The notes beneath the pieces were generated by a model that searched no databases, had not been told where the DNA came from, and saw only the letters and a program-made list of their open reading frames with translations. From an uncultured Gammaproteobacteria bacterium (GTDB lineage Bacteria > Patescibacteriota > Patescibacteriia > Magasanikbacterales > UBA922), in contig CAYUTO010000001.1 in the NCBI GenBank assembly GCA_964447765.1, positions 121,125-185,124 on the forward strand: DNA of 64,000 nt, given 5' to 3'. The translations under genes were made by a program, and so were the position numbers. Positions 10,368 to 29,705 of this stretch are shown here, piece after piece. How positions within the stretch are numbered: the first letter of the stretch is position 1; every line of letters starts with the position of its first letter.

Positions 10368-13253
10368 CTATTCAACACTGCAGGCAATCGCATTTAGTTT
10401 CCCCCTCGTCTGTGGACCAATGTACCCGACACGATCAATGCCATGTTCTGCTTGGAATTTTATTACCGCTTCACGAGTAAGGGGTCCAAAAAAACCAGTT
10501 GGAGCATGCGACAAGTACGATGATTTATTAAGAAGCTCCTGAGCAATCGTAACCCATGTATTCTGCATCCCATACATCAAGGTTGTTGTGGTGTCTAGGC
10601 ATTTTTTTGCAGTATTTTCTAAAAGAGGTGGCGGCACTACCGTTGAAGATGCACATTGCTCCTCATGGATTTTCTTTATTTTTACAAGACTGGTTGTGTA
10701 GACATACCCAGTCCCCTTTGAGATACCCCATGGTGTTAAAATTTCTGCAACATTTTTCTCTTGCCAACGAACCACTGCATCAAAGTCTACCCGGTCGTAA
10801 AATCCATCAACAGATAATTGTGCATGTTCGTACGTATTTAAAAATTTCTCGAGCAATCGCACATCATCTGGATTATTTTGAAACCCAATACGAATAGGAT
10901 TTTTTAGATATAATTCAACCCCACAAGAAAGTCCTTTTTCCATCTGAACAGGGGTGAGTGTAATTGAATCAGAAATGACCAAAGTTCCACCTTCGAATGA
11001 ACGAAGTTTAATATACACCGTTTTCATTCCAGCCCCACTACTCAATCTATACTCAGTAGGATTTGCAAATGAGACAAATAAACCATTGGCAAAATTAGGA
11101 TCTTCGCTGATTACCATCTGCATTGCATTATCTGCATTGATAGTAAGAATCACGTTATTATCTGCCGTTTCTTCTGCACCACCATTTATAAGAAGTGCAC
11201 CAATTGTAGGCGTAACTCCAGGATGTGTGATCGGGACACTCGGAGGAATAAAAGTTCCCCCACCACTCTCCTGCATTTCATGACCAAACAATCCAAAAAT
11301 TGAAAAACTATCTGAAGTACAGCTAATAGTATTTATTGAAGCACTGACCGTGCAATCATCTAGAGCCCTCCATGCACTATTGTGGTAGTGGTACAGTAAC
11401 AAAGATGATTCATCCAGACCTTGAATTTCATCATTTGAATACGTATAGGTAATTGTTACTGGAGTATCAAACGAATCAAGAATAATTGAATCATTGATAA
11501 TCGCTTTTACATCAAACACAATGTCCCCTACTACAGCATCAGGGCCGGTCGGCATACCCGTATTTGGCAGTACAGTACCTTTCTGTAGCGCATGGATTTG
11601 AATGACTAGACTATCAGAGTCTTCGGTCACCCCCGTTGGAACAACAACCTGAATAGTCGATTTTTCTGTAGGAAGCGAAGCTGAACCTCCTGACACAACA
11701 TCCATAGGAGTGGACGTTGCACTTGAGGCACTAACAATTGATTCACCTAAACATCCAGTAGTTATAAATTCTTGCGCAGTAGAGGATACTGTATTACCCG
11801 ACGCATCACGCGACTGTACAGTATAGAAGTACGTCGTACAAGCAAGAAGTGGCGATAGATCTACTTGATGCGAGACTACTCGAGGACTTATATCAGATTC
11901 AGCTGTGCTTACGGTTAAATTTTGTGTTAACCCAAAATACACTCTACTTGATGCAAGCTCATTAGTACTCCATGAGATAGTAGTTGACGTCTGCCCAGGC
12001 GTCGAGGTCACATTAGTAATTACTGGTGCAGTAAAATCACCCGTAGTAAAATTCCATGTAGTACTATTAGAAATACCTGAGTACCCAACTAACGATACAT
12101 TAGTAAAGGCTGTGGACGACACAAGCACATAATATCCGGTTTGTTCGTCAAAAATGACTGAAGGATTTACCGTAATCGTATTAGTTCCACCTCCACTGAC
12201 CTGAGCACTCAAGACCGAAATTTGCTCGACCAAACTACCGTCAGAGCTCTTTCGAACTTCGATATACCCTGTACTTGTAACTACAGTACTACTAAATACC
12301 ATAGTCAAGTTTGGTTCAACCGCAATTCCAGTTGCATTATCTGCAGGTGTCCGAGAATTCAAGACTGGAGCACTCACCGTTGTGATTGATACGTTTTTTC
12401 CAGACACACCAGGCAAATTTCCTGGTTCCCCAAACTCTACCACATATCCTGAAATCGAATAATCACACGGCAAATCATTCCAGGTACCATTAGTCACATA
12501 GAATTGACCACAATCTTCACCTACTCCATGGTCATTTGGTTCTGAACCTGCCCAGTTTTCATAATTTCCGCCCACAGCACTTCCACCTGCAGCGCCTGAC
12601 CAAAACTGTGTCCCATTCTCAGGACCGGTAACCCATTTCCAATTCCCTTCTTGCACTGAGTCGCTTGCACCCATCCATCCATCCCCTTGGAGACGATCGG
12701 CAACAAAATCGTTTTCTTCTTGAGAGAGAATCGTTGCTAGATATCCCGGCACCCCGTACGCAGTCTGATTCTGAGCAGCGGTCACCGCACTGTTCCAGCT
12801 GATTACACCCGAAATAAATTTGTACAAATGTCCATTGTCTGCAAAAAAGACTTCACCCTGCTCTACCAACGAAACCTCAAGTGTGTCCGTGCCAGTGCCA
12901 CCACGTGTATAGGTAAGCGTCTGCAATGCTGCATTGATATTGGCGACTGTTCCACTAAATTGTAATGTGGAGCCAGTCTGCCCTCCCGTAAAGGTCAACC
13001 CGGTCACTGATCCGAAGGCAAGCGTACCATTAGTCACCAGCAACTTTACTGGTGTAGTAGAGGCGCTATTTCCTATCAATTGTATGTCAGTGACCTGAGT
13101 GGCTACCCCAACCGTCGTAGTAGCAGCATCTGGACCTGATATGGTAATTGAACCTGAAGCACTAACTCTATTAACTCCACTAAATAGTAAAATAAAGACA
13201 CTAATTCCAACTATAGTACTCGAAAAGATATACGCAACACGTTTATATAACAT
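10368..13253 (-). CDS. Large secreted surface protein with C-type lectin domain (EPN motif), Ig/FN3-like repeats and C-terminal peptidoglycan-binding domain
   Basis: Signal peptide present. CTLD signature WMGASD...EGNWKWV...NWAGSEPND...GEDCGQF...GTWNDLPC. C-terminal PG_binding_1-like segment (LTREAVIKFQAEHGIDRVGYIGPQTRGKL). Confidence 0.7.
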   Translation of the reverse strand: MLYKRVAYIFSSTIVGISVFILLFSGVNRVSASGSITISGPDAATTTVGVATQVTDIQLIGNSASTTPVKLLVTNGTLAFGSVTGLTFTGGQTGSTLQFSGTVANINAALQTLTYTRGGTGTDTLEVSLVEQGEVFFADNGHLYKFISGVISWNSAVTAAQNQTAYGVPGYLATILSQEENDFVADRLQGDGWMGASDSVQEGNWKWVTGPENGTQFWSGAAGGSAVGGNYENWAGSEPNDHGVGEDCGQFYVTNGTWNDLPCDYSISGYVVEFGEPGNLPGVSGKNVSITTVSAPVLNSRTPADNATGIAVEPNLTMVFSSTVVTSTGYIEVRKSSDGSLVEQISVLSAQVSGGGTNTITVNPSVIFDEQTGYYVLVSSTAFTNVSLVGYSGISNSTTWNFTTGDFTAPVITNVTSTPGQTSTTISWSTNELASSRVYFGLTQNLTVSTAESDISPRVVSHQVDLSPLLACTTYFYTVQSRDASGNTVSSTAQEFITTGCLGESIVSASSATSTPMDVVSGGSASLPTEKSTIQVVVPTGVTEDSDSLVIQIHALQKGTVLPNTGMPTGPDAVVGDIVFDVKAIINDSIILDSFDTPVTITYTYSNDEIQGLDESSLLLYHYHNSAWRALDDCTVSASINTISCTSDSFSIFGLFGHEMQESGGGTFIPPSVPITHPGVTPTIGALLINGGAEETADNNVILTINADNAMQMVISEDPNFANGLFVSFANPTEYRLSSGAGMKTVYIKLRSFEGGTLVISDSITLTPVQMEKGLSCGVELYLKNPIRIGFQNNPDDVRLLEKFLNTYEHAQLSVDGFYDRVDFDAVVRWQEKNVAEILTPWGISKGTGYVYTTSLVKIKKIHEEQCASSTVVPPPLLENTAKKCLDTTTTLMYGMQNTWVTIAQELLNKSSYLSHAPTGFFGPLTREAVIKFQAEHGIDRVGYIGPQTRGKLNAIACSVE

Positions 13254-14478: not shown

Positions 14479-14552
14479 CAGCCACGTATATACATAAAAA
14501 ACTGTCTAAATAAGCCAGTTTTACTAATACTTAACTGAACCTACAATCAAAC

Positions 14553-15218
14553 TTATTTTATAGAAAATACTTTTTTGATTGACGTCTTCTTTGGTTTTAC
14601 TGAAAAATCAAACCAGCAGATAATCGCGCTTACAATTGCAGCAAAAAAGCACCACACCGAGGTGAAATTGACCATATATAATTTCCACGCAACAAGTGCT
14701 AGCATCCAGAATACAAAATACAAAAATCTAACATTACGATTACTTGAAATAAGACCAGCTACAATAGTCGTGAGGCCATACACTACGATTGCAAGCGTGC
14801 CAAATGGGGTGACGTAATCATAGTAGATACAACTATTCACGACGGTGGCTGATGCAGGGTTCATGATAAACGCCCCATACAGTGCAACACCGAGCATAAT
14901 TCCAGCCCCTGACAATCCCATCAGTATGTGTTTCCGTCGTGGGTTTTCCTCAAGTATATATACACTGAACGGTGCGTAGGCAGGCCACCAGAAAAGTGCA
15001 AAAAAGAGAAATAGATACGTAAAAAGCAAGGTGTATGTTCCACTCCCCTGAATATTCAACCACAACATCCCCTCAATTAATTGTTGTATTGCAAAAATAA
15101 ACGGTATAACCGCAATTGGTAACACTTTTTTTATTCTCTGATTCTTGATCACAGCCGCACCGCCAGCAACTGAAAGAAGTGCTGCAGCAGTAAAACTCGC
15201 TTCTGGAGAAAAACACAT
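14553..15218 (-). CDS. Polytopic membrane protein, hypothetical
   Basis: Hydrophobic 221-aa ORF. Confidence 0.4.
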   Translation of the reverse strand: MCFSPEASFTAAALLSVAGGAAVIKNQRIKKVLPIAVIPFIFAIQQLIEGMLWLNIQGSGTYTLLFTYLFLFFALFWWPAYAPFSVYILEENPRRKHILMGLSGAGIMLGVALYGAFIMNPASATVVNSCIYYDYVTPFGTLAIVVYGLTTIVAGLISSNRNVRFLYFVFWMLALVAWKLYMVNFTSVWCFFAAIVSAIICWFDFSVKPKKTSIKKVFSIK

Positions 15219-15262
15219 AATGTAAAAATGTATGGGACAAGTATAGCATGAAAAGTGTAAAT

Positions 15263-15294
15263 AAAAAATCCTGATACATACTCAGGATTTTTTA
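15263..15294. terminator. Bidirectional rho-independent terminator
   Basis: aaaaaatcctga...tcaggatttttt palindrome. Confidence 0.55.
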
Positions 15295-15313
15295 TTACTC
15301 ACCTATTTGAAAA

Positions 15314-16699
15314 CTACGTATGTCCATTAGTAAAGACTCTCCGCTCAAGTTCATCAAAATCGTAGTTTTGTGGAAAATACTCTTCAAAAAGTTTCATCGC
15401 TGGTTCACCGGAATATTCAAGGCGACGTGACGCATAATGCATCGCAAGAATCATTTCTTCAGGCTCCCCTACGCAATCAAATGGCTTAAATCCTTCGATA
15501 CCAAGGATACGTCTAAAAACGGGTAGGAGGCGCTTTTTGGCATACAGATCAGCACCGAATATATTGACTAGTTCTTTTTTTGGTAGAAATGCAGAGAAGC
15601 AGGCAAAGAGGAATATGCATTTTGGACATCGCTTACACCAATAGTTTGTACGCGACATACGCTGTATCACACGTGGCTCCCAAAAATAGGTATTACAGCT
15701 CGTAAAGTTGTAGAGGTACTGAGGATACTCGACGAATCGCTCCACGATCTCAAGTTCGCTGTATTCCCGCAAGAGCGAGCGCGTGGAAATGTCTGGCGTG
15801 ATATAGGATTGCATGTACTCATTGATCATTTTTTCCGCTGCAGATGATTTGCACCACTGATGATTCACGGGTAAGCCGAGATACTCTAGGTTACCAAAAT
15901 CAGCACTACGTTCGTTCGAGAAAATGATTGAGTTGTAACCGAGAAGTTCTGCGAGTAGTGTCGCTGTAAATGTAAATGTCGAGACCGATGGATACGCACC
16001 CGATAATATTGCATTGAGCCATGGATCACGACGACGAGTGACACTAATAGTCTTTGCACCCACGAGATGTGCAATGCGTTTGTGAGCGGGTGTTGGTGCA
16101 AAAGCAAAAAAGTCGAATGGTGTATCTGATGCTTTTAATATTTCCGCAGAGAGAATAGAATCTTTGCCTGCACCATTCAAAAGCAGTGCTCGCGGGGAAC
16201 ATTCGAGTCGTGCGGGCGTCGGTGCGACAAGAGAATCATCATACGGAAACGCAATGAGATTACGGAAATCAATCTGCATGAGGTAGAAAAATTCTCCAAG
16301 CCCATGTAGATAGAGCGTGTCCCAGAAATGCGCTTGCTCACGCGTGAGCGCAAACCCTTCGATTTTAATGTTCCTGGTTGGGAATGCACTCCAGTAGTTG
16401 ATGCCGATCATGATGAGTAATGCTTGCAGAGTCGGCTCGAGCACTGCTTTTGGTACTTTTTCCCACAATTCTGGCCCTACATCTGAAAATACGAGTTGAT
16501 CTGTAAACGTTTTAGTTATTCCAAATGTAAATTCAACGTGATAGGTAAAAAATATGGTTGAACGCTTTGCGTCAACTTTGTACGCACCAAACGTAAATGA
16601 CGATGCACGTAGTAATTTTACCGGATGCCACATATTTGTATGTTCAATTTTCGTAATGATAGCATAGGGCTTTCTTTGCGAATTGAAAAATAGACGCAA
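15314..16699 (-). CDS. Hypothetical protein with PP-loop-like ATP pyrophosphatase motif (NGAGKDS) and C-terminal Cys cluster
   Basis: LLLNGAGKDSILSAEIL resembles the SGGxDS PP-loop. A CKRCPKC cluster lies near the C-terminus. Last gene of the carotenoid operon strand. Confidence 0.4.
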   Translation of the reverse strand: MRLFFNSQRKPYAIITKIEHTNMWHPVKLLRASSFTFGAYKVDAKRSTIFFTYHVEFTFGITKTFTDQLVFSDVGPELWEKVPKAVLEPTLQALLIMIGINYWSAFPTRNIKIEGFALTREQAHFWDTLYLHGLGEFFYLMQIDFRNLIAFPYDDSLVAPTPARLECSPRALLLNGAGKDSILSAEILKASDTPFDFFAFAPTPAHKRIAHLVGAKTISVTRRRDPWLNAILSGAYPSVSTFTFTATLLAELLGYNSIIFSNERSADFGNLEYLGLPVNHQWCKSSAAEKMINEYMQSYITPDISTRSLLREYSELEIVERFVEYPQYLYNFTSCNTYFWEPRVIQRMSRTNYWCKRCPKCIFLFACFSAFLPKKELVNIFGADLYAKKRLLPVFRRILGIEGFKPFDCVGEPEEMILAMHYASRRLEYSGEPAMKLFEEYFPQNYDFDELERRVFTNGHT

Positions 16700-16712
16700 T
16701 ATAAATCATCGA

Positions 16713-17555
16713 TCAAAATAAAAATACCACGCTTGTAAATAATGCAAAACCCACAATGGTATTTAATAAAGGAAAATACCAGTACGCTTTTTGTACATGA
16801 CCCGGATAAAATAAAAGATATAAAGGAATAAAAAGATAGGCTAAGACCATAAAACCCAAAATAGATATGGGGAAATACAGCCATAAAACGAAAACTGATA
16901 TAAGCCATAACAACAGACACAAAACCAGCGATTGTCGAACACCTAGCACTACTGCGGTAGTAGAAAGACCTGCCTTGGCGTCGCTTGAGATATCAGGAAC
17001 TGCCGAGAATAAATGCATAGCCCAGGTCCAACAGCACACACCGATAATAATAGGCCAAGGAGGCAAATGCCCAACAACTTGTACATAACCAATAAAACCA
17101 GGCAGGCCATATAAAAGGTTTGATACAAAATCAATAAAAGGATGGGCTTTGAACCGTAGAGGTGGAGCACTATAAAAATAGGACAGGAAATAAAATAAGC
17201 ATAATAAGAAAGCTAGCAACACCGAACTCGCCGTAATTAAAACTCCCACATTCACCATAGTAATAACTAGTAGTGTAATGCGTAATTTGACTATTTGCGA
17301 AACCACCAACAACTGTTCCTGTGCACCTTTTTTTTGATTAAACTGGTCTGTATCACTATCATATAAATCATTTACCCCGTATAAAAAAATATTAGCCGGG
17401 ATAAGAAAAAATAATACGTAGACAAAAAATTGGGGGTTTAAAAAATCTTGCAGGCTAGTGATACCAGCCGCATACCCTACTACATAGGTCCCAGCTATAT
17501 ACAACCAAAATCTTGGCCGAGATAGTCTGTATAAGAATAATAGATAATTAATCAT
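16713..17555 (-). CDS. UbiA-family prenyltransferase (candidate lycopene elongase CrtEb/LyeJ-like)
   Basis: Polytopic membrane protein with the Asp-rich NDLYDSDTD motif (NDxxDxxxD). Embedded in the carotenoid cluster. Confidence 0.6.
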   Translation of the reverse strand: MINYLLFLYRLSRPRFWLYIAGTYVVGYAAGITSLQDFLNPQFFVYVLFFLIPANIFLYGVNDLYDSDTDQFNQKKGAQEQLLVVSQIVKLRITLLVITMVNVGVLITASSVLLAFLLCLFYFLSYFYSAPPLRFKAHPFIDFVSNLLYGLPGFIGYVQVVGHLPPWPIIIGVCCWTWAMHLFSAVPDISSDAKAGLSTTAVVLGVRQSLVLCLLLWLISVFVLWLYFPISILGFMVLAYLFIPLYLLFYPGHVQKAYWYFPLLNTIVGFALFTSVVFLF

Positions 17556-18613
17556 GTTGAACGGTTAAGATTAAAAGCGAGAAGGTCGTCCAAAAGCTGT
17601 TTTTGTTTGGAGTCAAATGGAAGCCCCGCAATAATTTTCTTAGCTTCCTTGATTTCTTTTTCTAAAAGAACCTGAATTTTGTCTATAACGCTATACTTAA
17701 CAATCAGTTCACGAACTTGCATTAACTGTTGTTTTCCAGCGGCAGGATTACCAAATATAGTTCCAAGCAATTTTTGCTCAGCTTTGGTAGCATGCTTATA
17801 CAAAAAATAATAATATAACGTCTGCTTACCTTCGCGAATATCTGACCCACATGGCTTACCGATTTTTTCCTGCTCCCCATACATACCTAATTCATCATCT
17901 TTAATCTGGAAAATAATTCCAATATGTTCTCCCAACTTCGCCAAACTGTTCACGGTATCAGATGCCACACCAGCAGCTATGCCGCCTAGCATAAAGGGCA
18001 ACGAGAATGTATAACGCGCCGTCTTATACCTATACAGTCGGAGGATTTCATGTATAGTCACCGATTGAGACACCGATCCAGCCCAGACATCTTGCATTTG
18101 CGCAAAACCAACCTTACATAATTCCTGAGAAAAAATTTGTACCAGCTTCTGACCTAACACTGCTTGTGAAACAGGCAGAGATGCCAACAGATCAAAGCTT
18201 AAAAATATCGCCACATCTCCAACACATACACCGAGAGATTCACCTAGATGATCCGCGTGCTTGCTTTTACTGGCATGTGCCAACATCTGATATTGGCGAT
18301 AAACAGTAGGCTGACCGCGACGTAAACCATCACAATCCATAATATCATCATGTATAACTAGGGCTGTATGGACAATCTCAATTGCGGCCGCCAGTTTCTG
18401 ACATGTTTCATCTGGCTTTTTTTGCGCCAATTCATAAGCCATATACACTAATCCTCCCCGAACCATTTTACCCTGACTGGCTGTGGCACGAAGTCTACGC
18501 AAGGCATCTACACTCCACCGATTTACGGGTTTATACAAAGCAATCTGATGAGTTACATACTCATTTAAAAATGGTGCAATTGACTGTTTGGTCGCGGCGA
18601 AATATTCTTTCAT
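17552..18613 (-). CDS. crtE: Polyprenyl (GGPP-type) diphosphate synthase
   Basis: First Asp-rich motif VIHDDIMDCD and second FQIKDDELG. The stop overlaps the next gene by 4 nt. Confidence 0.7.
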   Translation of the reverse strand: MKEYFAATKQSIAPFLNEYVTHQIALYKPVNRWSVDALRRLRATASQGKMVRGGLVYMAYELAQKKPDETCQKLAAAIEIVHTALVIHDDIMDCDGLRRGQPTVYRQYQMLAHASKSKHADHLGESLGVCVGDVAIFLSFDLLASLPVSQAVLGQKLVQIFSQELCKVGFAQMQDVWAGSVSQSVTIHEILRLYRYKTARYTFSLPFMLGGIAAGVASDTVNSLAKLGEHIGIIFQIKDDELGMYGEQEKIGKPCGSDIREGKQTLYYYFLYKHATKAEQKLLGTIFGNPAAGKQQLMQVRELIVKYSVIDKIQVLLEKEIKEAKKIIAGLPFDSKQKQLLDDLLAFNLNRST

Positions 18614-19428
18614 ACAAGATTACAAATTAACTGCTTCACAATACGAGCTTTAGATGGTTTTACTTTTGTTTTAAAAATAATAAATGGATCACTCTCAATA
18701 ACCTTGGCTGTGTAACGATACATATCGGCCGCGGTTTTTATAGGTAAGAGAGTACGACGAGAAAAATAACTAAAACCAACTTCTCCTTGCTTTTGCCAGT
18801 CACGGTAGCGCTCCAATTCTTGCTGGATTACATTTTTAAATGCTTGCGGATTAGCACGTGCTGTAGCTTCGGTAAGATTCTCGAATCCGAATGGACGAAG
18901 TACTTCCAGGGGAATATATTGTCTCCCCAACCCAATATCTTCGGAAATATCTCGAATAAAATTAATATACTGAAATCCCCGACCCAGTAACTGCGCAGTC
19001 TCGTATGATTCAGCTGGCAGACCAAGCAATTTGGTCATAACAAGACCGATAACTTCAGCTGATCCATAAATATACGTACACAGCTCTTCAAGAGTATGGT
19101 AATTTTTTTTCGAAATATCAGCGGTCATGGCTGCTAGAAATGATTCTATCCAGGAAGCAGGAATCTCGCGACGACGCATTACCTCTACAAACGAATCAAT
19201 AATAATATCGTTTGCAGACGTACCGCTCAAAGCCCGAGCATATTTTTGTTTAAAATCTAAAAATGCTTCTAGGCGAGGTGGAACCACATCCACCATATCA
19301 TCTGCTACGCGCACAAAAGCATAAAACTTAAAAATATCGTCACGTACCTCTGCAGGAAAAAATAAACTGCTCGTAAAAAAAGTCTTACTCCCCTGTTTAA
19401 ATATCTGATAAATCTTTTTATCCACCAT
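18610..19428 (-). CDS. crtB: Phytoene synthase
   Basis: Squalene/phytoene synthase motifs (YIYGSAEVIGLVM, GRGFQYINFIRDISEDIGLGRQYIP). Confidence 0.75.
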   Translation of the reverse strand: MVDKKIYQIFKQGSKTFFTSSLFFPAEVRDDIFKFYAFVRVADDMVDVVPPRLEAFLDFKQKYARALSGTSANDIIIDSFVEVMRRREIPASWIESFLAAMTADISKKNYHTLEELCTYIYGSAEVIGLVMTKLLGLPAESYETAQLLGRGFQYINFIRDISEDIGLGRQYIPLEVLRPFGFENLTEATARANPQAFKNVIQQELERYRDWQKQGEVGFSYFSRRTLLPIKTAADMYRYTAKVIESDPFIIFKTKVKPSKARIVKQLICNLV

Positions 19429-20890
19429 AATTATTTTTGATATTACTAGCTACGAGTTGCGACGAGATAAGACACATTGGCATACCAATACCAGGATGCG
19501 TATACTGACCCGTATAATATAAATTAGCAACCTTTTTACTCTGATGGCGAGGCCGAAAGACTGCGGTTTGCATGAGAGTATGACTTAGGCCTAAAGCCGT
19601 ACCTTTATAGGCATTAAATAACTCTTTAAAATCACGATGAGAAATAATTTTTTGTACTACCGGATTATGCAGGTCTTCCCCCAACAAGCCTCCTAAATGA
19701 GTAAGTATCTTTTCCGCATATCGCGCTCGCAGATCATCTGAATCTTCTAAGCCCGCAGCTACGGGAACTAACACAAACAAAGCTTCGCCTCCCGGTGGCA
19801 CGATCGTCGAATCAGTTTTTGAAGCACAGGAGACGTAATACGAAGGATGCTCTGGCCACGACGGATCTTCAAAAATAGTATCAAAATGCTTCATCCAGTC
19901 ATGATCAAAAAATAAACTATGATGTTCAAGCCCCTTGATTTTACGATCATACCCTAAACACAGGATAAAAGCAGAGGGTGCTACGGTACGCTTCTCCCAA
20001 TATGACTCGCTATATGTTTGAAATTTCTTATCCAACAAAGCAGTTTCGGTGTGATGATAGTCAGAATTAGCAATAACAATATCTGCCTCTACCAAAGTTC
20101 CATTAACGATCACTCCACGCGCGCGACCATCGACTACTTCTATACGCTCAACTGGACTATTATACGTCATACGTGTGCCATATGACTCAGCCAACGTTAC
20201 CAATGCCTGCACGACGCGATTAATACCACCTTCTGGATACCACACACCCAAATTAAAATCTATGTGTGACATAAGCGAATAAATCGCGGGCGTATTTTTG
20301 GGAGCTCCTCCTAAAAATACCATACTATATTCCAAAATCTTTCGCAGCTTATCATTTTTAAAATATCTTTTGGTATATTTGTCCAATGTTTCAAACACAT
20401 GAAGTTTTCTGCCTTCAATAAGCATCTGGCGATTAAAAAAAGATAACAGCGATGTATAATCTTTATACAAAAAATCTTTCATTGATACATCATATTGATA
20501 CTTGGACTGAGCCAGATAACGAGATAGTTGAAGAGCTGCTCCCGGCTCAATGGATTCAAAAAGGTCCATGTTTTTTTGTAGATCTGCGGAAATATCAACA
20601 TAATCGTCTTTTCCATAAAAAATACGATAGGCCGGATCCAAACGTTTAAGGGTAAAAAAATCTTCCGGCTTTTTATCAAATTCCGCAAAAAACTTTTCAA
20701 ATACATCGGGCATTAAGTACCAGGAAGGACCGAGGTCAAATAAAAACCCACTCTCTTGATAGATACTTGCTCTACCCCCGGGCTGACTATTTTTCTCAAA
20801 AACGGTCACCGCAAAACCATCTTTGGCCAGCAGTGCCGCGGACGAAAGACCACCAAATCCAGCGCCAATAATAATTGCTTTTTTAGGCAT
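19418..20890 (-). CDS. crtI: Phytoene desaturase (CrtI family)
   Basis: N-terminal FAD fold IIGAGFGGLSSAALLAKDGFAVTVFEKNSQPGGRA. 490 aa. Confidence 0.75.
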   Translation of the reverse strand: MPKKAIIIGAGFGGLSSAALLAKDGFAVTVFEKNSQPGGRASIYQESGFLFDLGPSWYLMPDVFEKFFAEFDKKPEDFFTLKRLDPAYRIFYGKDDYVDISADLQKNMDLFESIEPGAALQLSRYLAQSKYQYDVSMKDFLYKDYTSLLSFFNRQMLIEGRKLHVFETLDKYTKRYFKNDKLRKILEYSMVFLGGAPKNTPAIYSLMSHIDFNLGVWYPEGGINRVVQALVTLAESYGTRMTYNSPVERIEVVDGRARGVIVNGTLVEADIVIANSDYHHTETALLDKKFQTYSESYWEKRTVAPSAFILCLGYDRKIKGLEHHSLFFDHDWMKHFDTIFEDPSWPEHPSYYVSCASKTDSTIVPPGGEALFVLVPVAAGLEDSDDLRARYAEKILTHLGGLLGEDLHNPVVQKIISHRDFKELFNAYKGTALGLSHTLMQTAVFRPRHQSKKVANLYYTGQYTHPGIGMPMCLISSQLVASNIKNNYGG

Positions 20891-21674
20891 ACATATATTC
20901 TCTTATAGCTTGACTAAATTGCCGTCTGCAGATAAATAACAATACTATGCCGAGCATAAACGGCACATATAATTCTAAAAATAACGCTAGGGATAACCAA
21001 AGAATACATGAAAAATATAAACTAATAGCAAGGCTTACTGGAGGCACCACACCATTGGCAATTTTTTTGACATACATATAAAAAATACATGACCCGACCA
21101 AACTGGAAACTATCCAACCAGCATAGTTTACCACCGGAACGCCATAATACATGCCTGGCTCTACCCACTTCCACAACCCCAATGTCACGGCTACCGGATC
21201 TACCAATAAATCTATCGATACCATAACTAGCGCAGTCAAAACTAATTTAAACAACCATCGTATACGAAATCCGCTCACAATCCCGACACTACCCAGCAAA
21301 ATAGGCACCCACACAAATGGCGTACTTAGCGGGACGGTACTACCAACCATAATACCTGTCTTCGCATTATATACAAAATGTCCATACGGAATACCAAACT
21401 GTATCGCCAAAGCTTCAATAACTATTGCAAGGATACCTAAAATAAACAGTATCAATAGACCTTTTGTCCAGCCTAACCACTTAACTGTTACAAAGGCTGT
21501 TGGGAGAAATAATACCAACGTAAATAACGTTGAAACTATGGCCATACTGTCATCAAACGGGACACGGGCAGTAAAAAAAGCTATCGTAACTAGTACGATA
21601 TGGACCAAGATAATGGTGAAGTGTTTGAGGGTAATATGATTACAAATTAACGTTTCAAGCCTAGGGTCGGGCAT
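20883..21674 (-). CDS. Carotenoid-biosynthesis membrane protein (CruF-like hydratase / PF04240-like)
   Basis: 7-8 TM helices. IEALAIQFGIPYGHFVYN resembles the E..G..G.P.G.Y.Y motif of carotenoid 1,2-hydratase-like proteins. First gene of the crt operon. Confidence 0.45.
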   Translation of the reverse strand: MPDPRLETLICNHITLKHFTIILVHIVLVTIAFFTARVPFDDSMAIVSTLFTLVLFLPTAFVTVKWLGWTKGLLILFILGILAIVIEALAIQFGIPYGHFVYNAKTGIMVGSTVPLSTPFVWVPILLGSVGIVSGFRIRWLFKLVLTALVMVSIDLLVDPVAVTLGLWKWVEPGMYYGVPVVNYAGWIVSSLVGSCIFYMYVKKIANGVVPPVSLAISLYFSCILWLSLALFLELYVPFMLGIVLLFICRRQFSQAIREYMYA

Positions 21675-21816
21675 CTAGTAAAGATAGTCTGGTACGGTGA
21701 GTATTCTCATAAACAAAAACAACTGAAAACTTATAGTAAGTGTACTGCTTTATAGCCCAAGTGTCTATATCGTATTTGAGCTTTAAAAAATAACAAATTC
21801 GATAGCTGCTAATCAC

Positions 21817-21844
21817 AAAAAACCGCTTGGTTAGCGGTTTTTTG
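21817..21844. terminator. Bidirectional rho-independent terminator
   Basis: aaaaaaccgcttggttagcggtttttt. Confidence 0.6.
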
Positions 21845-21850
21845 ATATAT

Positions 21851-21895
21851 GCTCACACACTGGGACGAGTTTCAAACTGTTTTGACTAACTCTAC
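21851..21895. repeat. Conserved ~45-nt 3'-UTR motif, copy 1 (gctcacacACTGGGACGAGTTTCaAACTGTTTTgaCTAAcTCTAC)
   Basis: Near-identical to 29608..29652. Lies between the stop of gene 21960..25016 and its terminator. Confidence 0.6.
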
Positions 21896-21959
21896 TCCAT
21901 TGCTTGGTAATATTTTTCTTGGCTCTGACACGTGGGCAACTCCTGAACCTTAGCAAATG

Positions 21960-24900
21960 CTATCTTTGCAATTCTTGTCGAGTCAGTGGTCCTACATACC
22001 CACTCGCTGGAGAAATTCCTTTCGCAATCTGAAACGCAATCACTGCTTGACGAGTCAATGCTCCAAAATAGGTAGTCTCATTTCCGAGAGATCCATATCC
22101 ACTCGCAACAATAGGAAATCCGTTTGTGTTGAGATAGACTTGTAGCCCTTTGACATCTTCCCCACTCATGCCAAATTCCAAGTCACGCTTCAATAACGTA
22201 GATGTCGGTGACACGCTTGTTGTACCAGAAATACAGCCGAGATATTTTCTTATGGAAACATCAAATAATCCTGTTGCAGCAAATGAGTGTTTGTTTTGAA
22301 ATACCTTCAACGCTTGCTCAGTCAATGACCCAAAATATGCAGTTTCTTGCCCAGGAGATCCGGGACCTACGATCGCTACAGGCGTACCTATATTATTCAA
22401 ATATTGTTGTAACGCCATAGCCGATGGACCATAATATCCTTTTTTCATATCTACCACAAACAGTGGAGACGGACAGTTTTTTGTTTCTTTTTCATTAAGA
22501 GGAACAACTGGTGACGGATTGGACATTTTTTCCTCTTCGTCACTTTGTGTTGCTCGCAACGTTAATTCCACGCGATTATTCCACAACGCAGTAAAAGTAA
22601 CTGATAGATCAGAGACACCATCACTATCGAGATCCATATCTGCCAACGCACCAACCTTCAATACAATTGTACGCGGAGTAGAAGCAACCTGGATTGTCAC
22701 TTCTTTTTGTTCCGACAAATCAAGGTCTGTAATGGTGAGACGATGTTCTCCCAATTTCCCACTTGAACTTTCAACGAGTGAAAATAGCGCAGTAGACTGA
22801 ATATATACAAGTAGATTAACACCTTCACCAGAAATTTCACCAATATGTTTTGTTGCGTACATATCGACAGATTGATCCGATGCACCACTTCCCTCACCAC
22901 CCGGCACAATAAATGTACCTCCTCCACGAGTTGTTGGCGCAGTAGTATCAACAACGACACTGGTCGTTGCCGCACTTGAAATGTTTCCGGTATTATCCAA
23001 TGCAAAAACACTATAATAATATCTACCATCGTCAAGTGATGTCTGAGTAATACCAGTCGTAGTGGTGGCGCTTGTGACCGCAGTCCCACTACTCACTGTT
23101 GCTGGGTATGACGAAGTACTTCTTCGCACGGTAATTGATACAAAGTCACTTGCCGTTGGATTGGTCCAGGAGAGCGTAATATTAGATTCTGCGACAGATC
23201 CTGTAAGTGAGGAAACAGCACTTGGTGCATTGGTATCTGATTGTTCCCATGCCAAAAAAGCATAGCCGGAATTGATTGCCGGATCCATTTCCCACGTACT
23301 TGACGTTCCTCCATCGTCGTATGGTGTGCCCACAAAATCCCATACGGTATCGAGACCACTGGTATCTGTGTCTGTAAACGTTGCCAACACTTTCATTTGT
23401 GCCGTTGTTTTTCCAGTACCTTTGCCGGTATCGCTCTGACCCGAAGTTGTACTATCGTAAAACGAACTATCAACTATTCCTTCTCTATATTCTTCAATCT
23501 CTTCATCATACACTTGGTTCCGACCAACCAATCCACCAACATTGGTTGAACCAGATATTGCACCGGTTGCATACGAATACCGAATCGTACCACCATTGTA
23601 ATTATCCCCCACTAGTCCTCCTACTCGATCGCCTCCGGTTACATCCATGGATGAATAACAGTTGATTACGGTCCCATTGTTGTTTCCGGTAATTCCTGCA
23701 AGATAATAACTTAATCCTACCCCCGTGATCGTACCCTGTGAACTAGCTCGAGTTATTGTTCCTATGTTACTCCCTGCAATACCTCCTATAGCGGCATCTC
23801 CCACCAGTTCTCCTGAAAATGACACATTGCTCATCATACCATTGCTGTGTCCGGCAATTCCTCCGACAATAAAATCTCCGGTAAAATCTGCCTCTGTCAC
23901 GCGCACATTGCTTATTGAGCCACTATCGTCAACATATCCAAAAAGGGAAACATGCTCTTCAGCAGGTCTATCGATATAGAGCCCGGATATCGTATATCCA
24001 TTCCCGTCGAGACTACCGGTAAATGTGTTAGCATTATCACCGATAGGATCAAATCCTGCTCCACCATTCCATCCGGTCGTACCAGACGCATCAATATTAT
24101 TTGAAATTGTATAGTTATCAGTTCTATCTACTGCGATCAATTGCAATTCTGCCAACGTAGTAATAGCTGACCGATGCTCCATTTGCAAATGCGGATACCC
24201 TGCCATAATCCAATCGCCAATTGTGCCATCCCCCGCAACCGTAAAATCCCAGTCCGAGAATGTACTTTGCGTCATCATTTGTGCCGTTGTTTTTGAATTA
24301 CTAAACGACTCTGCACTTGCTGTACTTCGTGTGGCGTCAAAATATGCACCAGTGACGTTGGGCGTGACTCCGCCATCAACACTTCCAATGATTCCATTTG
24401 TATCTGACCCTGAAATGATGCCCGATGCATACACATTTTCAATCGTGCCGGTAGAAAAACGACCAATGATTCCACCCAGATACCCCCCACCTACCAAGTT
24501 AACATTTGAATAGGAGCTCGTAACAATAGCTGTGGCTTCTGGCGTATACCCTGCAAGCCCTCCACAATAGGCGCCCGGCGTACAATCAAGCGACCCGCTT
24601 GCGTAGACGTGCGTAAGCGTTCCTTCAAGATAAGAGGCAAACGCTCCGGAATATGTCGATGCATCATAATCAATATCAACCAGACCAAGGTTTTTTACTA
24701 CACCACCCGCAGCAATACGTAAAAATAAACCCGCATAGGTTGTACTTACATGGATATTGCTCACCTCATATCCCTGTCCATCAAGTGTCCCTGTGAACGG
24801 CGAACCATAACTCCCAATCTGGGTAAAAGTCGGTACTCCCGAACAATCAATATCATTGATAAGCACATAATCTTCGGTCAAATCATCAGCAATATCTTCT

Positions 24901-25016
24901 AGCCCACTACACGTACTGATATTGGTAAGCGCAAACGCCGTACGTGGCACGAAGAACGCAATTGCCATAACAACAACTGCAAGGTACACATATACACGAG
25001 GAAAAATCATACACAA
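21960..25016 (-). CDS. Large secreted surface protein with GLUG-like repeats and two C-terminal peptidoglycan-binding domains
   Basis: Signal peptide. Repeated F.GTLDGQGY.ISNL / GGLVG / GGIAG units. Two PG_binding_1-like segments at the C-terminus. Confidence 0.6.
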   Translation of the reverse strand: MCMIFPRVYVYLAVVVMAIAFFVPRTAFALTNISTCSGLEDIADDLTEDYVLINDIDCSGVPTFTQIGSYGSPFTGTLDGQGYEVSNIHVSTTYAGLFLRIAAGGVVKNLGLVDIDYDASTYSGAFASYLEGTLTHVYASGSLDCTPGAYCGGLAGYTPEATAIVTSSYSNVNLVGGGYLGGIIGRFSTGTIENVYASGIISGSDTNGIIGSVDGGVTPNVTGAYFDATRSTASAESFSNSKTTAQMMTQSTFSDWDFTVAGDGTIGDWIMAGYPHLQMEHRSAITTLAELQLIAVDRTDNYTISNNIDASGTTGWNGGAGFDPIGDNANTFTGSLDGNGYTISGLYIDRPAEEHVSLFGYVDDSGSISNVRVTEADFTGDFIVGGIAGHSNGMMSNVSFSGELVGDAAIGGIAGSNIGTITRASSQGTITGVGLSYYLAGITGNNNGTVINCYSSMDVTGGDRVGGLVGDNYNGGTIRYSYATGAISGSTNVGGLVGRNQVYDEEIEEYREGIVDSSFYDSTTSGQSDTGKGTGKTTAQMKVLATFTDTDTSGLDTVWDFVGTPYDDGGTSSTWEMDPAINSGYAFLAWEQSDTNAPSAVSSLTGSVAESNITLSWTNPTASDFVSITVRRSTSSYPATVSSGTAVTSATTTTGITQTSLDDGRYYYSVFALDNTGNISSAATTSVVVDTTAPTTRGGGTFIVPGGEGSGASDQSVDMYATKHIGEISGEGVNLLVYIQSTALFSLVESSSGKLGEHRLTITDLDLSEQKEVTIQVASTPRTIVLKVGALADMDLDSDGVSDLSVTFTALWNNRVELTLRATQSDEEEKMSNPSPVVPLNEKETKNCPSPLFVVDMKKGYYGPSAMALQQYLNNIGTPVAIVGPGSPGQETAYFGSLTEQALKVFQNKHSFAATGLFDVSIRKYLGCISGTTSVSPTSTLLKRDLEFGMSGEDVKGLQVYLNTNGFPIVASGYGSLGNETTYFGALTRQAVIAFQIAKGISPASGYVGPLTRQELQR

Positions 25017-25873: not shown

Positions 25874-28800
25874 ATGTCTACCATCGGCTCTCGTATTACC
25901 TCCATTAGAAAAGCGAAGAAAATCACGCAGGAAAAACTGGCAAAATCTGCTGGGGTTGATTATAACACGCTCAGAAAAGTTGAAACAGGAAAAACTAAAA
26001 ATCCTGGTTCAGAATTTATTGAAAAAATTTCTCTTGCCCTGAGTGTGACGACAGATCAGCTAATAGAGCAACCAAAGCCGGAGGTCAAAGGCGGTGACAT
26101 GCTCCCCTTTATGCAATTACCCCACGGTAATTTTGAGAAAATGATACTGACAATCCTTCAGTCTGATAATGGTAGGTATACAGATATAGAGCCGTTTGGA
26201 GGTAGGGGTGATAAAAATAGAGACATACTTGCAGTTGAAATTATCGGACAAAAACCCGCCGCCAGTAAGACTTTATTTCAAGCGAAGCGTCATGAAAAGA
26301 CAACATACACGACTCTTGAAGACGAATTGATTGGTATAAAGACTCACTTTTTTGATCAACCAAATCCTGCAACTCCAATAGAAAAAATTGTTTTTTGTTT
26401 GGCTGATACACCCTCCCCCACCATAAAAGATAAACTAAAACTCTTTGCTCGAGAAAATAATTTGCCCGAGCCAATCTTTTGGGATGCCCGAACAATCGAT
26501 GTCATGTGTAAAAGAAGCAATCAAATTATCAATGAGTTTTTTGGCGGTCATATTGTGGAGGCAATAGAAGGTGTATCACAAGTTATGACAGAAGTCTTAA
26601 ATATAAAAGAAATGGTCCAAAAAAATACTTCCTCTACCAAACCAGATTCTACACTAACATCAGTAAGTTCTAAAGGCGACGCTCAAATGCAAAAAGCTCG
26701 AAGGCTTATTGGTGAAAAAAAGTATTCTGAAGCAAAGGATATACTTTTGACCATTAAAGAAACAGTTGAAAATTCGAGCGACCATGAACGACTAAAAAAA
26801 CTCTACAACAATCTCGGCCTATGTCTCTCCAAAGAAAACAACTCAGAAAGCCTAAAACAGAGTCTAGATTATCTGTACATGGCTATCGATCTCAAGGTTG
26901 CAAAACAAAATCTTATCGAGGTGATAATAAATAAAGAGGTCAAGGATAAGTATGACGATGCGCTCAAATATGCGCAGGAGCTTTTAGCCGAAGAACCAGA
27001 TAATTTGGACTATGCAGCGTTATACATACATGCACTAAATGCGAAGGATAAAATGCCGGATGCTAAAAAATTTATCGAAACTGACAAAAAAATAAAAAAT
27101 CGTATACAAGAAAATGAAGCTCTTTCAGTAGCTGTTTCCTTAGTCTATTTCATACTCCAAGAGGTTGAAAAAGCTAGTCTTTATGTAGACAATGCTTTGG
27201 AAATTTTTCCTGAATCATGGAGATTGAATAGATTTAAGGGTACAGCATTAATGCTTGAAGCTGAAAAAGGAATGCTCTCAAGAGATATTGACATCATGCC
27301 CTTCTTGAAAACAAATTTAGTCGAGAAGGCAGTGGAACATTTCGAAAAATCCCTGGATCTTGCAATAAATGATGGAGCACCCGAGTTTATGCACAACCAA
27401 ATTCGGTTATGTATATACAGCGCCATGATTTCTTTACGTAGAGGTCAATCGAGTAAATTCAAAGATGCTTACTTAAAAACACTCGAAAAAAGCATCGATG
27501 ATGGCCAGCTCAGTGAAACGGAGTCAAAGGCTAAAGTTGTGGCAAAAATATCTCAAATGCTTGAATGCGAAAGAAATTTTGAGACTGCTTACACTATCTT
27601 CAAAGAAGAAATTGTAGAGAAATATAATGCAACTTACAAAACTATTCTGGATATGGCGCACAAATTTTTTCAGCACGGTGCACCGGAATATTCGATTAAA
27701 TTGCTCGAACCACTACATGATGAGGCGAAGGAGAACAACGATTTTGAGTACTGGGCAGTTTTGAGCACATGCCATGCCTTACTTAATGACAAAAACTCAG
27801 CTCTACGGACAATGAACGAAGCACAAAAGCATTTTTCTTCTTTGACAGATATTGAGTTAAAAAGAAGAATACTTTCACACTACAGCGCATTAACTGCTCG
27901 CTATCACGATAACAGCGAAGCTGAGCGCATGTTCAGAAGTATGACTGAATTGCAAAATATCACACCAGAGGAAACAATTGTTCAGCCAATAGAGGCTCTG
28001 ACTTCTGACGGTCACCTTACTCAGGAAATGAAAGACTTTTTTGAGAACAATAAGAAGGATTTTATAAAGAAAAAAGAAAAGTTTGTTAATACTCCAATTC
28101 CAGTATACTTCTTGGAGAGAATTTTCAGTAGAAATTTCCCTGAAGCCCTAGAAATTCCACGGAATAACTATGATTTTGAATTTGTAATACATTACAATGC
28201 CCTAGATAAGGAATTTTTACATAGGCAGGTTGAAATTCTTGAAAAGAATGACACATTTGTCATTGATTATAGTGCCCTGCTAAATTTTTCTCGCACTGGG
28301 CAATTGGGATTATTTAGTGCACTTGGCAAAAAGGTATTAGCCTCTGAATATCTATTATTCCAAGTACAACAAGATCTAATGGTTTCCGAAAATCACACAT
28401 TACGGAACGCATGGAATTTTCTCCGCGGAGGAAATGTACAACTTTTTCCCTACATTGAGATTGAGAAAGGCGCTTTGCCCAAACTGATTAAAGACTTTTT
28501 CAGCGAATGGATGCCTTGGTTTGCACAAGAAATAGTATACTGTTTAAAAAATAAGACCCCTCTTATAACCGACGATCTACGCATGCTCAGTTACTTGAAC
28601 TCAGAAGAAGTTGGACTAGCTTCCATAAATAGCTTTATTTTTTTTCAAACAGGACTCATAACCGGCGCTCTTGATAAAAAACAGTATAGCCTTGTATTAG
28701 GTGATCTTGCAGACATGTTCTATCATTTTATTGCATTCAATGGAGAAGATTTGTTACATATTGTCGCAGACGATACTAACAAAATTAGAAATGGCAGTAC

Positions 28801-29209
28801 CCAAGATTGGATGAGTTTTAAAGAGCATGGTGAAAACTTCAAGGTCTCTAGAAGGGCTTACCATTTATTGAATCAAGTTCACTTACCTGGATCAGAGGTA
28901 ACAAGCTTTTTAGCAGTGTCCTTAGATTTTCTTGAGCGCCTGATTAAGCTCAGCTTTACTGAAGATGAAAAAATGGACTGGGTTCTATTTATGACAAATT
29001 TTTATGGAGGTTTTCTTTCTGAAGAAAATTTTAATACCCAACGAGAGCAGTTCACTGTTCACTTAGAGTTCGTTATTAGAGCGTGGGTTCTGATCTTTCA
29101 ATCTTTACCCAAGAATAGACCTGACATCTTAAAAAAGGCAGGTAAAATCAAGTACGAACATCTACGTTTAGCCATTGAAAATTCTTTAAGAAAAGGAATG
29201 GAACTATAA
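25874..29209 (+). CDS. Multidomain protein: XRE-type HTH, Mrr-like PD-(D/E)xK nuclease domain, TPR-like repeats and a ~450-aa unknown C-terminal domain
   Basis: HTH: ITQEKLAKSAGVDYNTLRKVETGK. Mrr_cat-like: FGGRGDKNRDILAVE...FQAKRH (D-E-K). The track start at 25817 is a TTG; the ATG at 25874 is preferred. Confidence 0.6.
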   Translation: MSTIGSRITSIRKAKKITQEKLAKSAGVDYNTLRKVETGKTKNPGSEFIEKISLALSVTTDQLIEQPKPEVKGGDMLPFMQLPHGNFEKMILTILQSDNGRYTDIEPFGGRGDKNRDILAVEIIGQKPAASKTLFQAKRHEKTTYTTLEDELIGIKTHFFDQPNPATPIEKIVFCLADTPSPTIKDKLKLFARENNLPEPIFWDARTIDVMCKRSNQIINEFFGGHIVEAIEGVSQVMTEVLNIKEMVQKNTSSTKPDSTLTSVSSKGDAQMQKARRLIGEKKYSEAKDILLTIKETVENSSDHERLKKLYNNLGLCLSKENNSESLKQSLDYLYMAIDLKVAKQNLIEVIINKEVKDKYDDALKYAQELLAEEPDNLDYAALYIHALNAKDKMPDAKKFIETDKKIKNRIQENEALSVAVSLVYFILQEVEKASLYVDNALEIFPESWRLNRFKGTALMLEAEKGMLSRDIDIMPFLKTNLVEKAVEHFEKSLDLAINDGAPEFMHNQIRLCIYSAMISLRRGQSSKFKDAYLKTLEKSIDDGQLSETESKAKVVAKISQMLECERNFETAYTIFKEEIVEKYNATYKTILDMAHKFFQHGAPEYSIKLLEPLHDEAKENNDFEYWAVLSTCHALLNDKNSALRTMNEAQKHFSSLTDIELKRRILSHYSALTARYHDNSEAERMFRSMTELQNITPEETIVQPIEALTSDGHLTQEMKDFFENNKKDFIKKKEKFVNTPIPVYFLERIFSRNFPEALEIPRNNYDFEFVIHYNALDKEFLHRQVEILEKNDTFVIDYSALLNFSRTGQLGLFSALGKKVLASEYLLFQVQQDLMVSENHTLRNAWNFLRGGNVQLFPYIEIEKGALPKLIKDFFSEWMPWFAQEIVYCLKNKTPLITDDLRMLSYLNSEEVGLASINSFIFFQTGLITGALDKKQYSLVLGDLADMFYHFIAFNGEDLLHIVADDTNKIRNGSTQDWMSFKEHGENFKVSRRAYHLLNQVHLPGSEVTSFLAVSLDFLERLIKLSFTEDEKMDWVLFMTNFYGGFLSEENFNTQREQFTVHLEFVIRAWVLIFQSLPKNRPDILKKAGKIKYEHLRLAIENSLRKGMEL

Positions 29210-29262
29210 TTCACTAATTTGATTTTTTAACTGATAAATTGTATAGTGTGTGAACAATTAAT

Positions 29263-29553
29263 ATGATCACAAAAAAGCAAAAACTCGAATGGGTAATTAT
29301 AGTGTTATTAACTTTTATCTGTATCGGATGTCTATTCCTTGTTAATAATAGTAAAGGAATGATACAAATCCCTGTTTTTAAAATCATCTACGAAAGCGCG
29401 CTGATTGCTACGCAATTTGTGTATGGATTTTGTAAAATGTTTGCAATACTTATGTGGTATACAATTACTCACAGCTGGATTACCATACTAATAACTTGTG
29501 CATTAATCGCGCTGTTTATCACTAATATTTTTTACCGTCGCACCAAAGATTAA
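29263..29553 (+). CDS. Small membrane protein, hypothetical
   Basis: 96-aa ORF with three hydrophobic helices. Confidence 0.3.
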   Translation: MITKKQKLEWVIIVLLTFICIGCLFLVNNSKGMIQIPVFKIIYESALIATQFVYGFCKMFAILMWYTITHSWITILITCALIALFITNIFYRRTKD

Positions 29554-29572
29554 TGAGGTAGTTTGAATAATA

Positions 29573-29605: not shown

Positions 29606-29607
29606 TA

Positions 29608-29652: not shown

Positions 29653-29705
29653 ACTACATGTGTTTATCTAACAAGATATTCTTGGGATAAAAAATTTGAA
29701 TTTAA

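Follow-up and report, generated by a model that had tools for sequence, protein, structure and literature searches.

The window analysed here, a 64,000-nucleotide (nt) stretch of contig CAYUTO010000001.1 from a bacterium of the candidate phyla radiation (CPR), carries on its minus strand, at positions 16713-21674, five carotenoid genes whose arrangement is best explained as a self-contained, translationally coupled operon, cruF-crtI(D)-crtB-ids-lyeJ. From the families of its enzymes, this operon is predicted, with a probability of roughly 70%, to make bacterioruberin, a red pigment familiar mainly from halophilic archaea, or a close C50 relative. One member of each enzyme family needed after isopentenyl diphosphate (IPP) and dimethylallyl diphosphate (DMAPP) is present in the operon, and the elongated, hydroxylated carotenoid that an initial annotation had proposed for this region is supported both by a LyeJ-type UbiA protein and by the conserved residues of a CruF-like protein, and stands as the best reading. 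The five genes are as follows (lengths in amino acids, aa; family matches with E value or score).

20883-21674, minus strand: cruF-like membrane protein, 263 aa (PF04240 Caroten_synth, 1.9e-35)
19418-20890, minus strand: crtI/crtD ('CrtID'), 490 aa (CrtI family; NF058655, 695.2 bits)
18610-19428, minus strand: crtB, head-to-head prenyl condensing enzyme family, 272 aa (PF00494 SQS_PSY, 2.7e-53)
17552-18613, minus strand: ids, short-chain trans-polyprenyl diphosphate synthase, 353 aa (PF00348, 3.3e-53)
16713-17555, minus strand: lyeJ-like UbiA-family prenyltransferase, 280 aa (PF01040, 8.9e-25)

Gene order and enzyme families

The region had been described as a contiguous series of minus-strand genes for a CruF-like protein, crtI, crtB, a polyprenyl synthase, a UbiA-family protein (with the motif NDLYDSDTD) and a protein with a PP-loop motif, and all six open reading frames (ORFs) were found again at the same coordinates when the ORFs of the window were checked, with Pfam and NCBIfam matches that confirm this description. 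Stops had been said to overlap starts throughout, by 4 to 11 nt, which holds for the first four junctions, from cruF through crtI, crtB and ids to lyeJ (8, 11, 4 and 4 nt in that order), but not for the UbiA gene and the sixth gene, which do not overlap. Catalytic motifs are complete in all five carotenoid enzymes. The same cluster has been recovered in three independent assemblies. A Logan contig (L001), assembled independently and with an identical junction, matches window positions 15530-24302 at 100% identity, and a contig of an NCBI metagenome-assembled genome (MAG; L002) matches positions 14550-21854 at 95%. Since it is found in independent assemblies, and since dozens of genomes show this gene order, the arrangement is neither due to chance nor an assembly artefact.

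Two short features lie upstream of cruF.

21816-21844, minus strand: terminator-like hairpin AAAAAACCGCT-N5-AGCGGTTTTTT, a perfect 12-nt inverted repeat found by a repeat search
21739-21767, minus strand: candidate sigma-70-like promoter TAGACA-17-TACACT, 9/12 match, 65 nt upstream of the cruF start

The hairpin stands between the upstream gene for a 1018-aa surface protein and cruF, and convincingly sets the upstream edge of the operon; the promoter is a candidate for cruF, proposed from its position. A promoter and terminator scan covering 13-22.5 kb gave counts not above the shuffled expectation, and the hairpin at 21816-21844 is absent from the list produced by that scan.

The gene at the downstream end encodes a predicted LyeJ-type lycopene elongase/1,2-hydratase, and it shares its operon with a CrtD/CrtI desaturase and with CruF. 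The protein scores 298.7 bits on the NCBIfam model NF009516 (PRK12875), above the cut-off of 205, and at most 40 bits on the models for MqnP, UbiA, ChlG and MenA; the NCBIfam scan gave no haem O synthase match at E = 0.01 or better. PRK12875 can be tied to LyeJ because the UbiA proteins of haloarchaeal crtD-lyeJ-cruF loci match it: in Halovenus and Natronomonas, the UbiA protein encoded between a crtD-type desaturase and cruF, the arrangement published for bacterioruberin genes, has PRK12875 as its best model (427-441 bits), and the CruF protein beside it in a Halovenus locus (L073) scores 413 on CruF_Halo, above the cut-off of 300. In a neighbour-joining tree without bootstrap, built from 81 family members and E. 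coli UbiA, MenA and CyoE, with neither CrtEb nor actinobacterial LyeJ included, the window protein falls inside the LyeJ clade, beside other CPR sequences, and the three E. coli proteins, 13-21% identical to it, form distant, long outgroup branches. Its identity to haloarchaeal proteins is about 38-39% in the trimmed tree alignment, and 41-42% in the best tblastn segments. Both Asp-rich motifs are present (NDLYDSDTD at residues 62-70, DISSD at residue 188), their residues being invariant across 26 homologues. The protein is below the cut-offs of the sister models PRK13595 and PRK13105, and a protein-mode search of the PLSDB plasmids for CrtEb or actinobacterial LyeJ returned only five haloarchaeal matches named 'prenyltransferase'.

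At the other end of the operon, the CruF-like protein is a predicted C50-carotenoid 2'',3''-hydratase (bisanhydrobacterioruberin hydratase). It matches PF04240 with 123 bits (cut-off 25) and fails TIGR03460 CruF (114.4 bits, cut-off 154.7) and NF041333 (80.6 bits, cut-off 300), and it scores 39.5 bits on the cyanobacterial-type gamma-carotene hydratase model; for comparison, a Methanobacterium CruF homologue passes TIGR03460 (168) and a haloarchaeal homologue passes both models. The protein would accordingly be placed as a member of the CruF family rather than as an equivalog, its reaction being read from context. Its CruF-like nature was upheld by an alignment with 42 homologues from related loci, haloarchaeal CruF included, in which it keeps all 23 residues conserved in at least 90% of the 43 sequences (P58, E87, G94, P96, Y97, F100, Y102, G107, P115, P124, D155, D159, P160, W168, G174, Y177, G178, P180, N183, G186, W187, W226 and P238), with conserved blocks PYGxF at 96-100 and DPxAV at 159-163.

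The CrtI protein, with the FAD/dinucleotide-binding motif GAGFGG at residue 9, passes the CrtID model NF058655 with 695.2 bits (cut-off 640), a score equalled by a Methanobacterium homologue and exceeded by a haloarchaeal one (767), and is predicted to act both as phytoene desaturase and as carotenoid 3,4-desaturase, a bifunctional activity that has been demonstrated only for C0507 and D1086 of Haloarcula japonica (PMC11946383). The CrtB protein contains both Asp-rich motifs (DDMVD and DISED) and passes no NCBIfam equivalog cut-off (CrtB model 102.8 against 500; HpnD 124.9 against 278.6). Its best solved relatives are CrtM-type enzymes, and the position of its Ser21 is taken, in the aligned structures of two C30 synthases, by the Phe of the 'AF' motif. 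Small residues at this CrtM Phe site permit C40 synthesis in engineered CrtM, which makes Ser21 a lead rather than a test; the protein is thus established to the level of superfamily PF00494, and its probable C40 assignment derives from context and from Ser21. The polyprenyl synthase carries the motifs DDIMD and DDELG, and its best solved relatives are the GGPP (geranylgeranyl diphosphate) synthases 3lk5 and 1wy0 and the FPP (farnesyl diphosphate) synthase 8f8f, the best match being a GGPP synthase, so that it is probably a GGPP synthase equivalent to CrtE.

Related loci were collected by a scan with one genome per species, using UbiA alignment, which gave at least 581 relatives; the neighbourhood counts given here refer to the 80 best-matching loci. 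Taxa are named here as in the public records, in which several 'Gammaproteobacteria' MAG labels on CPR-like sequences look doubtful. The best UbiA relative belongs to a Candidatus Magasanikbacteria MAG (L003; 92% protein identity), and CPR labels occur on 11 of the 80 loci. This best relative, together with a MurL homologue of CPR type beside the operon, places the window in a CPR/Patescibacteria genome, most likely one of Magasanikbacteria, in line with the reduced genome presumed in the initial annotation. Within 10 kb of the UbiA gene, a CrtI homologue is present in 73 loci, a CrtB homologue in 71 and a CruF homologue in 42, and colinear crtI-crtB-ubiA was found in 53. A homologue of the polyprenyl synthase (phmmer, at least 100 bits) occurs at most 10 kb from ubiA in 14 of the 80, which are bacterial/CPR and Woesearchaeota loci, with no other archaeal locus; this distribution is in keeping with a CrtE-like role in hosts without the GGPP supply of archaeal lipids. 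In a Ca. Doudnabacteria MAG (L056, 9107-10819, plus strand), a 571-aa ORF fuses an SQS_PSY domain (24-275) to a LyeJ-type UbiA domain (324-538), and therefore links both enzymes to one pathway.

The crtI-crtB-lyeJ(-cruF) set is also common in strictly anaerobic archaea (L008, L012, L021, L023, L024, L027, L030, L051 and about 45 more archaeal loci), its hosts being Methanobacteriaceae (including the isolate Methanobacterium sp. ACI-7), Methanosarcinaceae, Methanomassiliicoccales, Bathyarchaeia, Thor-, Heimdall- and Hermodarchaeota, and Woesearchaeota. The only methanogen examined in this way, Methanobacterium sp. ACI-7 (L024), has proteins that score above the cut-offs of PRK12875, CrtID and TIGR03460. 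A review describes methanogen carotenoids as unstudied (PMC9410494), and the literature searched yielded no work on bacterioruberin genes from methanogens or from Asgard archaea. These counts suggest that the LyeJ cluster is much wider in CPR bacteria and anaerobic archaea than that literature acknowledges.

Predicted product and alternative explanations

The route to bacterioruberin has been established in Haloarcula japonica (as cited in PMC9258230 and PMC9410494; for the bifunctional CrtI/CrtD, PMC11946383), and the gene families, intact motifs, synteny and family memberships described above allow the same enzymatic steps, chain lengths and end product to be predicted for the operon. The polyprenyl synthase would make GGPP, and CrtB would join two GGPP molecules into phytoene; a single CrtI-family enzyme would convert phytoene to lycopene, and later introduce the 3,4 double bonds, like Haloarcula C0507. 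The LyeJ-type UbiA protein would then add a C5 unit from DMAPP at C-2 and hydrate C-1,2 at each end (C40 to C45 to C50), and CruF would hydrate both added isopentenyl groups, giving bacterioruberin. The product would be located in the membrane and would be bacterioruberin or an acyclic, polyhydroxylated C50 carotenoid closely related to it.

A cyclic C50 product of the decaprenoxanthin type was considered and rejected as unlikely, since no cyclase ORF fits between the overlapping genes. Decaprenoxanthin is made in C. glutamicum by CrtEb and the CrtYe/Yf cyclase, not by CruF, and the statement in the initial annotation that CruF-type hydratases build decaprenoxanthin is corrected accordingly. 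The presence of CruF together with the lack of a C50 cyclase therefore points to the acyclic bacterioruberin branch.

Several points weigh against bacterioruberin as the product. The literature searched offered no chemical data on carotenoids from any CPR bacterium, and clusters of the LyeJ type are frequent, too, in strictly anaerobic archaea without known pigmentation, so that the product of the family may be broader than bacterioruberin. The CruF-like, CrtB-like and polyprenyl synthase proteins are all under NCBIfam equivalog cut-offs, their probable reactions and C20/C40 chain lengths being deduced from context, and for the UbiA protein the sequence comparisons bear only indirectly on the choice between LyeJ and CrtEb.

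An alternative is that the operon makes a carotenoid other than bacterioruberin, with diverged LyeJ-like or CruF-like enzymes that stop at C45, act as hydratases only, or leave a bisanhydro- or partly hydrated C50 compound. Such an outcome, rather unlikely and to be kept in mind, would be consistent with the scores of the CruF-like protein under both equivalog cut-offs (114 against 154.7, and 80.6 against 300), with a UbiA protein only about 38-39% identical to haloarchaeal LyeJ in the trimmed alignment (41-42% in tblastn segments), and with the many related clusters, most CPR ones among them, that have no cruF within 10 kb. The conserved CruF residues are nevertheless all kept, cruF is translationally coupled to crtI, and UbiA and CrtI each score above the curated cut-off of a haloarchaeal model. 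A C30 (diapocarotenoid) pathway, in which an FPP synthase would feed a CrtM-like dehydrosqualene synthase and the UbiA protein would elongate a C30 backbone, is improbable: the SQS_PSY protein does pass no CrtB equivalog cut-off and has CrtM-type enzymes as best solved relatives, and the polyprenyl synthase also resembles the FPP synthase 8f8f, but the best solved match of the latter is a GGPP synthase, the desaturase passes the cut-off of CrtID (C40/C50), and the synteny is common to haloarchaeal C50 clusters. The Ser at the position aligned with the chain-length-limiting Phe of CrtM also argues against C30, the alignment being computed here and the size rule being general background.

The remaining explanations concern the genes rather than the chemistry. 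That the cluster is a chimera of assembly, or a silent or decaying remnant of horizontal acquisition, and yields no product in this host could be suspected from the position of the cluster at the edge of a variable region of about 31 kb and from its 94.8% nt identity to the Magasanikbacteria MAG L003, against 75-79% for the flanks, which indicates recent exchange. This reading is highly improbable, given five intact ORFs with catalytic motifs and coupled starts, a GC content of the cluster that matches the window (0.396 against 0.398), and the identical junction assembled independently in L001. That the UbiA gene encodes an ordinary quinone, haem O or chlorophyll prenyltransferase merely standing beside carotenoid genes can practically be dismissed: its product belongs to the general UbiA superfamily, but the models of these other classes give at most 40 bits against 298.7 on PRK12875, with no haem O model at E = 0.01, E. 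coli CyoE, UbiA and MenA (13-21% identity) lie outside its clade, the gene overlaps its upstream neighbour by 4 nt, its synteny is kept in related loci, and a CrtB-UbiA fusion is known. A quinone or haem prenyltransferase was rejected on the model scores, tree and identities, and the earlier proposal of an elongase-type enzyme, for which a phylogeny had been suggested as a check, held up, as the protein clusters in the LyeJ clade, not with quinone/haem prenyltransferases, and passes PRK12875.

The MurL homologue and the wider window

The gene that follows the operon had been left unassigned as a trailing PP-loop gene.

15314-16633, minus strand, from an ATG start (15314-16699 from a TTG start): MurL homologue with a PP-loop-like motif, LNGAGKDS (NF041275)

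It can be assigned through NCBIfam and precomputed Pfam matches and is, as judged from these comparisons, a conserved CPR MurL homologue (peptidoglycan glutamate epimerase family) that abuts the operon and is not part of it. The match to NF041275 (8.3e-71, 238.8 bits) aligns residues 34-441 with model positions 9-411 of 447, and is under the cut-off of 700 of this model, which is specific to Xanthomonadales. Precomputed Pfam domains MurL_N and MurL_epimerase_C are recorded on a 93%-identical protein of a public contig; the gene had no match in the local Pfam copy, and no related solved structure. At E <= 0.001 there are 2,296 homologues, of which the best 120 are 73-93% identical, all carry MurL_N and MurL_epimerase_C, and have the motif LNGAGKDS invariant; the few that are named by organism among these 120 come from Azambacteria, Staskawiczbacteria, Nomurabacteria and Parcubacteria. 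MurL uses ATP and releases AMP (PMC8788868), and LNGAGKDS as an adenylating P-loop-like motif therefore fits this family.

If the gene begins at the mechanically assigned TTG (16699), 13 nt separate it from the UbiA stop; if it begins at the ATG at 16633, the spacer is 79 nt. This ATG is the start annotated in a near-identical public contig, and it also fits the family alignment. A repeat search found no terminator or hairpin in the 79-nt spacer, and read-through co-transcription of the MurL homologue from the operon is possible. This short spacer, the absence of a hairpin and the shared strand could suggest that the six genes form one functional unit, with an ATP-using PP-loop-like protein that modifies the carotenoid. 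Such a unit is hardly plausible: the protein is a MurL homologue, 73-93% identical across many CPR lineages with or without carotenoid genes, and no MurL homologue occurs in any of the 80 related carotenoid loci. In L003, the operon is directly followed by a DUF6629 gene, and high nt identity to the window stops 27 nt after the UbiA stop; in other CPR genomes, the MurL homologue lies in unrelated neighbourhoods, or beside DUF6629 with no carotenoid genes nearby. Membership of the MurL-like gene in the operon was rejected from its absence in the 80 loci and from the end of the L003 identity. The DUF6629 membrane protein itself (14553-15218, minus strand, in the window) comes after the MurL-like gene in the window and in L002, adjoins MurL in L089 and L090, and was not found in carotenoid loci other than the window, L002 and L003.

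The MurD2/MurL route to D-Glu is listed only for Xanthomonadales, a few Alphaproteobacteria and rare actinomycetes (PMC8788868), and no paper with both MurL and a CPR term was among the top-ranked results of a loosely matched literature search. The homologues found here raise the idea that CPR bacteria may generally use MurL as an alternative peptidoglycan step. No Mur-ligase family match was found among 36 window ORFs of at least 150 aa compared with Pfam, several others (e.g. 41095-41823 and 60935-61558) being unscanned.

The operon is apparently an accessory module at the edge of a variable region of about 31 kb, and one that seems to have been exchanged recently. Window positions 16686-18971 are 94.8% identical in nt to L003, and flanking genes 75-79%. 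In the related genome L089, FtsE/FtsX, DUF6629, MurL and CNNM form a tight group that includes no carotenoid genes. In the window, about 31 kb lie between FtsX (47.7 kb) and MurL (16.6 kb), a distance taken up by the operon, two giant surface proteins, a low-GC stretch, a type III restriction-modification pair and an integrated element. A compositional sign of foreign origin was looked for and rejected, the GC of the five-gene cluster (0.396) equalling that of the window (0.398), and the donor would therefore be compositionally similar, probably another CPR bacterium.

Other parts of the window may be described more briefly. Positions 38794-47673 encode a LexA/S24-like repressor, a Zot-like ATPase, an inovirus-like Rep ORF2/G2P replication protein and a large serine recombinase whose ORF ends within a tRNA-Gln gene (47602-47673), and represent a probable integrated mobile element. 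The stretch 28000-38736, of low GC (28-34% against about 40%), looks like a defence island, with a type III restriction enzyme (ResIII), an N6/N4 DNA methylase, a DUF2779/RNase H-like protein, a 929-aa protein with a weak AbiEii-type AAA match and a 1130-aa HTH-TPR protein. Two giant secreted proteins with C-terminal PG_binding_1 domains flank the carotenoid region (10368-13253, 961 aa, and 21960-25016, 1018 aa, both on the minus strand); one has a C-type lectin domain, the other GLUG motifs and Ig-like domains, and they are possible host-attachment proteins of an episymbiont. Lastly, a plastocyanin/azurin-type cupredoxin of 154 aa is encoded at 125-589 (minus strand) in this CPR genome, which hints at oxygen/copper redox chemistry and could bear on electron disposal by CrtI.

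Significance and comparison with known systems

CPR bacteria are thought to depend on their hosts for membrane lipids. If the operon does what is predicted, it would offer a direct test of whether these ultra-small bacteria make their own membrane-active isoprenoid; its 5 kb would amount to a compact, self-sufficient pathway from IPP and DMAPP to a C50 pigment with a single desaturase, and a handy unit for the heterologous production of a valued antioxidant. A broader and more tentative proposal, on balance doubtful, is that CPR bacteria make by themselves a C50 tetrahydroxy-carotenoid that spans and reinforces the membrane, that the operon is mobile among Magasanikbacteria, and that bacterioruberin-type carotenoids and oxygen-independent desaturation are widespread, serving membrane mechanics more than photoprotection. 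Under this proposal, the occurrence of LyeJ-CrtI-CrtB(-CruF) in methanogens, Asgard archaea and Bathyarchaeia would extend their distribution beyond haloarchaea and a few actinobacteria.

Of the characterised systems, the bacterioruberin cluster of haloarchaea, crtD(c0507)-lyeJ(c0506)-cruF(c0505) of Haloarcula japonica and Halobacterium salinarum (Yang et al. 2015, as cited in PMC9258230; PMC11946383), comes closest. Its three enzyme families all occur in the window, whose UbiA and CrtI proteins pass the same NCBIfam cut-offs as the haloarchaeal ones; the conserved CruF residues are common to both, and a single bifunctional CrtI-type enzyme is plausible here too. They differ in gene order, which is cruF-crtI-crtB-ids-lyeJ in the window, where crtB and a dedicated polyprenyl synthase belong to the operon, whereas haloarchaea have crtB on the opposite strand and use a housekeeping GGPP synthase. 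The window also stands apart by the limited identity of its UbiA protein (about 38-39%), by a CruF under equivalog cut-offs and by its host, a reduced-genome bacterium.

Among bacteria, a UbiA-type elongase acting on lycopene, as predicted for the window, within an operon of the crtE-crtB-crtI type is a point of likeness with the actinobacterial C50 pathways, of which the bacterioruberin pathway of Arthrobacter (PMC9122864) and the decaprenoxanthin pathway of C. glutamicum are examples. The latter is unlike the window operon, which has a CruF-like gene and no C50 cyclase genes.

Closer in lineage, lyeJ, crtD and cruF were reported in Ca. Patescibacteria of Lake Baikal in 2023 by Haro-Moreno et al., who proposed a membrane role for C50 carotenoids (PMC9948471). 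With this report, and with CPR labels on 11 of the 80 related loci, the view that such a carotenoid would be unexpected in a reduced-genome bacterium is weakened; no report on carotenoids in Magasanikbacteria was found in the literature searched. The predicted pathway is the same and so is the superphylum, but in the Baikal sequences the genes are scattered, with cruF far from lyeJ/crtD or with genes on different reads, while the window, most likely of the lineage Magasanikbacteria, has five genes, precursor steps included, in one overlapping operon. It adds a clustered, complete example to this single earlier genomic report of lyeJ, crtD and cruF in Patescibacteria, and is a new, unusually complete and compact instance of a gene set already known in CPR bacteria.

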